From NCBI RefSeq assembly GCF_003334335.1, contig NZ_QOWQ01000220.1: DNA of 328 nt. The stretch is one strand, 5' to 3'. Below are positions 1 through 328 of this stretch, piece after piece. The position numbers and the translations under genes are program-made. The stretch's first letter is position 1. Each line of letters starts with the position of its first letter. Source of the stretch: Escherichia coli. GTDB lineage: Bacteria > Pseudomonadota > Gammaproteobacteria > Enterobacterales > Enterobacteriaceae. The notes under the pieces are model-generated. The model worked only from the letters and a program-made list of their open reading frames with translations. It searched no databases and had not been told where the DNA came from.

Positions 1-99
1 GGTGAGCCTGTTGAGCATGTTGATGCTGGCAGAGTAATTCTGATGCCCCCCTCAGTGGCAAAAGACATGGTCAGGAGCGGAATGGCCGTTTATGCGTGA
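1..99 (+). CDS. 3' end of a phage head assembly / DNA-packaging accessory protein, lambda gpFI-like (5'-partial; the start lies upstream of the window)
   Basis: Frame 1 is open from the window edge to TGA at 97-99 and translates to GEPVEHVDAGRVILMPPSVAKDMVRSGMAVYA*. This aligns without gaps to my recollection of the lambda gpFI C-terminus (EPV..V..G.......VA..M...G.A), ending at the same distance from the stop. It sits immediately upstream of an FII homologue, as FI does in lambda (E-FI-FII-Z-U-V). Identity is modest, so the assignment leans on synteny. Confidence 0.55.
   Translation, partial: GEPVEHVDAGRVILMPPSVAKDMVRSGMAVYA
73..81 (+). promoter_or_regulatory. Shine-Dalgarno-like ribosome-binding site for the FII-like gene, embedded in the 3' end of the upstream CDS
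   Basis: AGGAGCGGA at 73-81 is purine-rich and complementary to the 16S rRNA 3' end. The AGGAG core (73-77) is 14 nt upstream of the ATG at 92, which is long, but the GGA at 79-81 gives a 10-nt spacing. Sequence-only call. Confidence 0.4.
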
Positions 100-328
100 T
101 TTTGAGAATTCCTTTGATGCTGCCCTTGCCGGGGTGGACAGAACGATTGTTGAAGTGATGGGACTCTGTGCGCAGTTCACCTCGGGGGCACAGTGTGGCA
201 GCGAAGTTCAGGGGGTTTTTGACGATCCGGAGTCGCTGGGGTTTGCCGGTAGCGGGGTCCGTATTGAAGGAAGCAGCCCGTCATTATTTGTGCGGACGGA
301 TACGGTTCGTGCCGTGCGGCGTGGTGAC
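92..328 (+). CDS. FII: Phage head-tail joining (head completion / tail attachment) protein, lambda gpFII family (3'-partial; continues past the window end)
   Basis: ATG at 92-94 is the only start codon in frame 2 after the in-frame stop at 41-43. The frame is open to the window end and translates to MRDFENSFDAALAGVDRTIVEVMGLCAQFTSGAQCGSEVQGVFDDPESLGFAGSGVRIEGSSPSLFVRTDTVRAVRRGD. This is collinear with lambda gpFII as I recall it (MADFDNLFDAA...TSGEQSG...GVFDDPE...AGQGVRVEGSSPSLFVRTDEVRQLRRGD), roughly 60% identical with no gaps, including the near-invariant blocks GVFDDPE and EGSSPSLFVRTD.VR..RRGD. Confidence 0.9.
   Translation, partial: MRDFENSFDAALAGVDRTIVEVMGLCAQFTSGAQCGSEVQGVFDDPESLGFAGSGVRIEGSSPSLFVRTDTVRAVRRGD

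Follow-up and report, generated by a model that had tools for sequence, protein, structure and literature searches.

A stretch of 328 bases of Escherichia coli DNA (the window) holds two reading frames on the same strand, both of which run off its ends. The first of these provokes a question: which protein ends here, and does its ending bear the mark of a conserved contact with a phage capsid? The initial annotation had proposed that the ending belongs to a relative of the lambda protein gpFI and that its conservation fits such a contact.

Frame 1 translates as GEPVEHVDAGRVILMPPSVAKDMVRSGMAVYA and is closed by a TGA at positions 97-99. The second frame begins with the ATG at 92-94, runs to 328 and reads MRDFENSFDAALAGVDRTIVEV...; because this start lies inside the end of the first frame, the 8 bases ATGCGTGA are common to both genes. 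The principal features of the window, all on the plus strand, are listed below, with the evidence in parentheses.

1-96, plus strand: last 32 codons, residues 91-122, of a 122-aa gpFI-family chaperone (translation, DNA match, PF14000, phrog_92, BLASTP and AlphaFold2 model)
1-96, plus strand: C-terminal half of a small predicted head-binding domain (C-terminal domain of the AlphaFold2 model compared with PDB entry 2LSM)
1-91, plus strand: right-hand end of the variable FI cassette (low DNA identity to other FI types, 92-100% again at the FII start)
92-99, plus strand: FI/FII overlap ATGCGTGA, 8 bases (FII start codon 92-94, FI stop codon 97-99)
97-99, plus strand: FI stop codon TGA (sequence)
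92-328, plus strand: first 79 codons of a gpFII-type head-tail joining protein (117 aa in the prophage)

Three further ORFs in a mechanically produced list were rejected as lacking support: one of 20 aa on the plus strand that overlaps the FI and FII genes, and two on the minus strand (52-180 and 177-284) that are antisense to these two well-supported genes. No Rfam family scored above threshold in the window; a sub-threshold match to a plant snoRNA (20.9 bits against a gathering score of 50) was attributed to chance. Promoter-like and terminator-like sites were sought in the window, and none was found.

Identity of the FI gene

We compared the 32-residue tail with the C-terminus of lambda gpFI as read from J02459, which ends ...DEPVAFVLPGTAFRVSAGVAAEMTERGLARMQ. 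Anchored at the end and without gaps, the two share 10 of 32 residues (EPV, V, G, VA, M, G and A). These are exactly the identities that the initial annotation had listed, and its placement of the feature at 1-99 was right. The alignment has a BLOSUM62 score of 34, compared with -23.8 +/- 11.5 for 200,000 shuffles (P = 2.5e-5 when end-anchored; 2.6e-4 if the tail may be placed anywhere in gpFI), and of all placements along lambda gpFI the C-terminal one scores best. The resemblance thus exceeds chance.

A prophage carried by E. coli JE86-ST05 (locus L002) and by several other strains matches the window at 100% identity, and phage PhiR5_1, which carries the same FI annotation, matches it at 96%. 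About a quarter of complete E. coli genomes (1,366 of 5,426) contain a match at 80% identity or better. In the JE86-ST05 prophage, the full ORF occupies L002:8731-9099, has its own ATG at 8731 and encodes 122 aa; RefSeq names the gene gpFI and its product 'DNA-packaging protein FI' (WP_000201508.1). Window positions 1-99 are therefore the 3'-terminal part of FI in a lambda-like E. coli prophage; as a gpFI-family protein (PF14000), this FI is unremarkable and has already been annotated.

Profile searches with the full ORF, for which the initial annotation had called, matched gpFI-family models end to end. PF14000 (Packaging_FI) aligned at 1.3e-15 (query 3-119, model 1-131 of 131), and phrog_92, 'DNA packaging chaperone FI', aligned at 1.4e-41 (residues 1-121 against 1-127 of 128); the latter profile is also matched by lambda gpFI. 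These two full-length matches bear out the assignment to the gpFI family that had been made from the tail. Direct comparison by BLASTP gave 29% identity to lambda gpFI (E = 2e-9), with residues 3-119 and 2-129 collinear over the whole length. Among 5.8 billion proteins searched, 140 relatives were found, the best 120 of which range from 98% down to 38% identity and nearly all carry PF14000. In NCBIfam, no model matches either the FI ORF or lambda gpFI.

The surroundings of the gene are those of lambda. In L002, genes for the small and large terminase subunits, W, the portal, an S49 protease/scaffold, a decoration protein and the major capsid protein precede FI, which is followed by FII, Z, U, V, G, T, the tape measure and further genes. 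The order Nu1-A-W-B-C/Nu3-D-E-FI-FII-Z-U-V is found in both L002 and L001, and PhiR5_1 has the same order and names. FI is hence flanked by the major capsid gene (E) on one side and the head-tail joining gene (FII) on the other. The gene directly upstream indeed encodes a gpE-type major capsid protein, as the initial annotation had anticipated: the product has 342 aa, is 60% identical to lambda gpE and is collinear with it to its end.

That the segment might instead be the C-terminus of this capsid protein, or part of a capsid-FI fusion, is exceedingly improbable: the FI ORF does match positions 361-476 of 481 in phrog_2353, a 'major head protein' profile (4.2e-15), which shows that in some database entries a capsid protein is fused to an FI-like segment, but the FI families match much more strongly, and at the L002 locus the capsid stop codon (end of the gene, L002:8679), the 51 bases of spacer that follow it, with a hairpin and a T-run, FI's own start and a capsid protein collinear with gpE to its end exclude it. 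The FI segment is accordingly separate from the capsid ORF, and it is not part of the C-terminus of the gpE family (PF03864).

Several observations were made on the spacer and on fused or shortened genes at related loci. The hairpin between E and FI (L002:8687-8717, about 290 bases upstream of the window) has a GC-rich stem of 9 bp and is followed by a T-run (GCGGGGGCGAAATGCCCCCGT GTTTTTTT); the lambda spacer has a different hairpin at the same place (GGCCCTTCGGGGCC). The prophage hairpin could lower FI expression relative to E or stabilize the E message. The phrog_2353 profile ends in 120 FI-like positions, and four database proteins (P0079, P0094, P0106 and P0063) have an FI segment joined to FII (PF05354), to the minor tail protein Z (PF06763), to Big_2 or to another domain. 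These fusions are probably products of frameshifts or deletions, or else of gene calling. At locus L045 (IMG/VR UViG_2695420480_000002; FI region from 3001), FI is fused in frame to a long tail-tip (J-like) sequence two residues before the FI C-terminus, in an open frame of 992 aa, apparently the result, in a decaying prophage, of a deletion that runs from the FI end into the tail fibre gene.

Predicted structure of FI

We modelled FI with AlphaFold2 from an alignment of 24 sequences. The model is of medium confidence (mean pLDDT 70.6). It has helices at residues 4-18 and 28-49 in its N-terminal part, an acidic, low-confidence linker at 47-69 (pLDDT below 50), and a C-terminal domain comprising strands 73-77, 81-87, 93-97 and 102-105, followed by a helix (107-116) and a last strand (119-121). 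The predicted architecture is thus a helical N-terminal segment (about 1-45), an acidic disordered linker (about 47-69) and a beta-beta-beta-beta-alpha-beta domain (about 73-121).

We then compared the model with 350,542 PDB chains using Foldseek. The top match was 2LSM, the NMR structure of the lambda gpFI C-terminal domain (residues 72-132), with a probability of 1.00, a modest E-value of 3e-3, a target-normalized TM of 0.78 and an rmsd of 2.9 A over 60 columns. The two-domain architecture of gpFI, including a C-terminal domain of the 2LSM fold, is therefore present in this medium-confidence model. The next matches, to FI residues of about 70-122, were small beta domains of GINS subunits from archaeal and eukaryotic replisomes (50-60 columns, target TM 0.2-0.6, E 0.04-1); this weak resemblance is probably generic to the fold. 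Searching the PDB with the FI sequence missed 2LSM and returned a single match, to a racemase at E = 1.1, which was dismissed as chance.

From the predicted fold, it follows that the window encodes strand 93-97, a turn at G100, strand 102-105, the helix, a cap at G117 and the last strand, as set out below.

7-45, plus strand: predicted beta-hairpin, with strand 93-97 (nt 7-21), G100 turn (nt 28-30) and strand 102-105 (nt 34-45) (DSSP on the AlphaFold2 model)
49-93, plus strand: predicted helix 107-116 (nt 49-78), G117 cap (nt 79-81) and strand 119-121 (nt 85-93) (AlphaFold2 model)

The full-length family matches, the gene order and the superposition on 2LSM together establish this FI as a gpFI homologue. 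The alternative that an unrelated small acidic protein occupies the same position, its tail resembling gpFI by chance, could appeal to the mere 31% tail identity, to the want of an NCBIfam model for either protein and to the PDB sequence search that missed 2LSM, but it is excluded by the profile matches (1e-15 to 1e-41 over the full length) and the fold, and is countered as well by the shuffling result, by the graded intermediates (from 94% down to 38% identity, with PF14000, among the relatives listed) and by the lambda gene order; we give it practically no credence.

Conservation along FI

Is the tail the conserved part of this protein? In the 24-sequence alignment, the mean pairwise identity is 77% for residues 1-42, 20% for the linker, 36% for the C-terminal domain and 35% for the 32-residue tail. 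Ten of 42 columns in the N-terminal segment are invariant among the 24 homologues, compared with 2 of 32 in the tail, namely G100 and G117. The 'EPV' that the tail shares with lambda becomes ESV, RPV, DEV or RVL in other FI types, and the other well-kept tail positions are alternating hydrophobics. The tail therefore belongs to the half of the protein that varies rather than to the one that is conserved. With glycines kept at the hairpin turn and the helix cap, along with the alternating hydrophobics, the fold skeleton is preserved while the surface changes: what the tail keeps is the skeleton and not the contact surface. Thus, of the proposal that a conserved tail fits capsid contact, the gpFI identity stands, and the conservation was overstated. 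If the C-terminal domain contacts the capsid, a type-specific surface would fit these data better than a conserved one.

The N-terminal segment (residues 1-42, L002:8731-8856) behaves differently. It is nearly invariant in the E. coli, Citrobacter and Salmonella types, with lambda as an outlier at 44%. This pattern points to a conserved partner, which may be terminase, DNA or the portal, or to repeated homogenization by recombination.

The variability of the remainder is organized in discrete forms. Three types of FI occur in head modules that match the window's prophage at 91-100% identity in D, E and FII, and the head modules of types B and C are 91-97% identical to that of the type A prophage.

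Type A (the FI of the window): 122 aa, reference
Type B: 124 aa, 58-60% identity to type A
Type C: 127 aa, about 51% identity to type A

The junction with FII

The second frame of the window matches NCBIfam NF049848 (tail_join_FII, 2.1e-14) and phrog_82 and is 70% identical to lambda gpFII. A well-placed Shine-Dalgarno sequence for FII was not found, the nearest candidate being AGGAG at 74-78, 13 bases upstream. In lambda, the two genes are separated by an 11-base spacer containing GGGAGG, whereas in the prophage they overlap by 8 bases. The arrangement suggests that translation of FII is probably coupled to that of FI in types A, B and C.

This overlap raises an alternative account of what conservation there is at the end of FI (about nt 79-99, ...GMAVYA*), namely that it reflects a nucleotide constraint from the overlapping FII start and from ribosome loading rather than capsid contact. 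Consistent with this notion, the DNA of types A, B and C becomes similar again at about CGGAATGGC..TATGCGTGA, immediately ahead of the FII start, against 43-72% identity over the remainder of the cassette. However, lambda and the Salmonella types, in which FI and FII do not overlap (the spacers are 11 bases in lambda and 9 bases in locus L339), likewise retain G117 and the hydrophobics that follow it. Moreover, such a constraint could explain at most the last 5-7 codons of FI, not the domain. We therefore consider this explanation unlikely.

FI types and the capsid protein

We fetched 345 loci in all, some of which re-sample the same contigs, and extracted E, FI and FII from each. When type A (L002) and type C (PhiR12_1) are compared in 60-base sliding windows over the region from D to Z, DNA identity is 88-100% outside two valleys: one at E codons of about 146-185 (60-75% identity) and one at FI codons of about 40-122 (43-80%). 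These are the sole valleys in 2.7 kb, and about 470 bases of E that are 88-100% identical lie between them. PhiR5_1 (type A) and PhiR12_1 (type C), both isolated phages, have head genes that otherwise agree at 92-100%. On its right, the FI valley is bounded by the FII start codon (window position 92). Because the valley runs up to this start, six of the seven matches in a megablast search of phages do not begin until window position 38. The stretches that diverge between prophages of different FI type are as follows.

L002:8086-8211: diverged E stretch, codons about 146-187
L002:8857-9099: diverged FI stretch, codons about 43-122

Variation in the E patch is associated with FI type. Across 68 distinct E+FI pairs, 12 positions of E (148, 149, 150, 158, 159, 163, 165, 166, 169, 172, 182 and 187) have a normalized mutual information with FI type of 0.45-0.83, compared with 0.28 or less for the 49 other variable positions, including the polymorphic 195-332 between the patch and FI. 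Relative to type A, the type C patch carries the charge changes T158E, K159G, I163E, S166D, E169K and K172E. The net charge of E 148-172 is +1 in type A and -4 in type C; for the FI C-terminal domain, the corresponding values are -2 and +4. This complementarity is a trend (r of about -0.6, an estimate from seven types), with Salmonella S1 as a misfit. In the loci examined, lambda-type FI was seen only with lambda-type E, and three loci with 'S2'-type FI have similar E patches despite widely differing FII genes. The pairing has exceptions: one type-C FI accompanies a type-A E patch, some patches are hybrid, and a type-B FI occurs with I163.

Some loci deserve separate mention. In a natural chimera (L342:2001-2399, on GCA_054682115.1 contig DBLRAV010000071.1, and L343:588-986), a type-C capsid gene and FI N-terminus are joined to a lambda-type linker, C-terminal domain and FII; the junction falls after about codon 42, at the end of the conserved N-terminal segment. 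This segment may serve as a homology anchor for recombination. Within lambda-type loci (L165-L244), E codons 158-159, which are Glu-Glu in lambda, are mostly Ala-Ala (42 loci vs. 7), and EA and VA are rare; this polymorphism (EE, AA, EA, VA) has no clear link to FI variation among the lambda-type prophages. A scan of viral contigs with a Salmonella-type FI (P0076) returned only E. coli types already in the set, and the P0084 and P0097 contigs were too short to take in E. An apparent '82%-identical E type' proved not to be a new type; its capsid gene is truncated to 294 aa. Truncation to this length occurs in four type-B loci (L042, L047, L048 and L049), which are probably defective prophages.

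Two explanations of the association between FI type and E 146-187 must be weighed. The first invokes no physical contact: FI type and patch would co-occur through shared ancestry or through diversifying selection acting independently on two exposed, fast-evolving patches, for instance to evade host defences that sense the capsid protein. Residues 141-200 are the most variable stretch of E among eight representatives, so two rapidly changing patches could be associated through common descent. The FI types number only about three to seven, which leaves few independent events; the pairing exceptions and the C/lambda chimera are also in keeping with this explanation. In addition, bacterial immune systems that recognize phage capsid proteins are documented. 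Against it, the two valleys are the only ones in 2.7 kb between types A and C, and are set apart by well-conserved E sequence; the variable E sites between them show little association with FI type; and independent literature (PMC4856287) puts gpFI on the gpE lattice. On balance, shared ancestry or separate selection has close to an even chance of being the correct explanation.

The second explanation is that the variable part of FI (its linker and C-terminal domain) and E of about 146-187 are matched allelic pairs in natural lambdoid prophages, forming the two sides of a chaperone-prohead contact. Their joint replacement would then mark the gpFI docking site on gpE. The pattern is what a type-specific contact would produce, and it hints at one from few independent events (A, B and C plus a handful of distant types). 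Given those few events, the general variability of E 141-200, the weakness of the charge trend, the exceptions and the chimera, we put matched pairs forward tentatively, as a possibility with somewhat more against it than for it. An 'EFi domain' of gpE was reportedly defined by Murialdo and Tzamtzis in 1997 from FI-bypass mutations, and it reportedly lies in this part of E. To our knowledge, the docking site of gpFI on the prohead has not been seen structurally.

Proposed role of FI

What might this protein do in the prophage? Lambda gpFI is described as an assembly chaperone that aids association of the terminase-DNA complex with the prohead (PMC4856287) and assists assembly of the terminase-DNA-prohead complex (PMC4856287, PMC7889075). 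It is proposed to sit on the gpE lattice and so promote formation of the ternary complex (PMC4856287). Contact with the capsid is attributed to its C-terminal domain by Popovic et al. (2012), as cited in PMC4856287 and PMC7889075, which agrees with the premise from which the initial annotation set out.

By homology, the C-terminal domain of the prophage FI would bind the gpE lattice of the prohead, and the chaperone would thereby be tethered there. The rest of the tethered protein would help the terminase-DNA complex to dock and to start packaging. The segment encoded in the window would be part of this head-binding domain. The contact between FI and gpE may be type-specific, as the exposed residues of FI vary by type alongside a matching variant of gpE at about 146-187. 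Taken as a whole, an explanation that combines gpFI identity, the predicted fold, head binding by homology and a putative type-specific surface is the best available, and we hold it with high confidence. Within it, the family membership, the gene order, the predicted fold, the pattern of variability and the association with E come from the present data; head binding, the part played in packaging and the matching of surfaces are inferred.

The identification itself matters very little: FI is already named in RefSeq and in deposited phage genomes, and the head-binding role of the lambda C-terminal domain was reported in 2012. A useful correction is that the conserved module of gpFI is its N-terminal 42 residues and that its C-terminal domain is a swappable, type-specific cassette. 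Only the two-patch mosaic linking this cassette to E 146-187 deserves the attention of specialists. If the two are truly matched, natural variation would map gpFI docking on the prohead and would furnish pairs, both compatible and incompatible, on which the packaging-chaperone model could be tested.

Comparison with known systems

The prophage FI resembles lambda gpFI in the position of its gene between E and FII, in its predicted three-part architecture, in a collinear full-length alignment, in common Pfam and PHROG families, and in a modelled C-terminal domain that superposes on 2LSM. It differs in being only 29% identical overall (31% in the tail) and 10 residues shorter, mostly in the linker. 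The capsid protein that accompanies it is likewise only 60% identical to lambda gpE.

The FI proteins of other lambdoid prophages in E. coli, Citrobacter and Salmonella (types B, C, D, S1 and S2) share with type A the nearly invariant N-terminal sequence MATKEENxKRLxELAxxLGRExDxSGSAADIAQRVAEWEEE, the order of domains and the turn glycines G100 and G117. In contrast, their linkers and C-terminal domains are only 36-60% identical to those of type A and fall into discrete types, each accompanied by a variant of E 146-187 of its own.

More distant comparisons are provided by chaperones recognized through their fold. The 2012 abstract of Popovic and colleagues reportedly assigns head binding to the gpFI C-terminal domain, and the same work is said to have recognized gpFI-like chaperones in other myo- and siphophages by their fold. 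These proteins reportedly have a small C-terminal head-binding domain of the same fold at very low sequence identity. Unlike such remote relatives, the prophage FI is a plain, sequence-level member of the lambda family.
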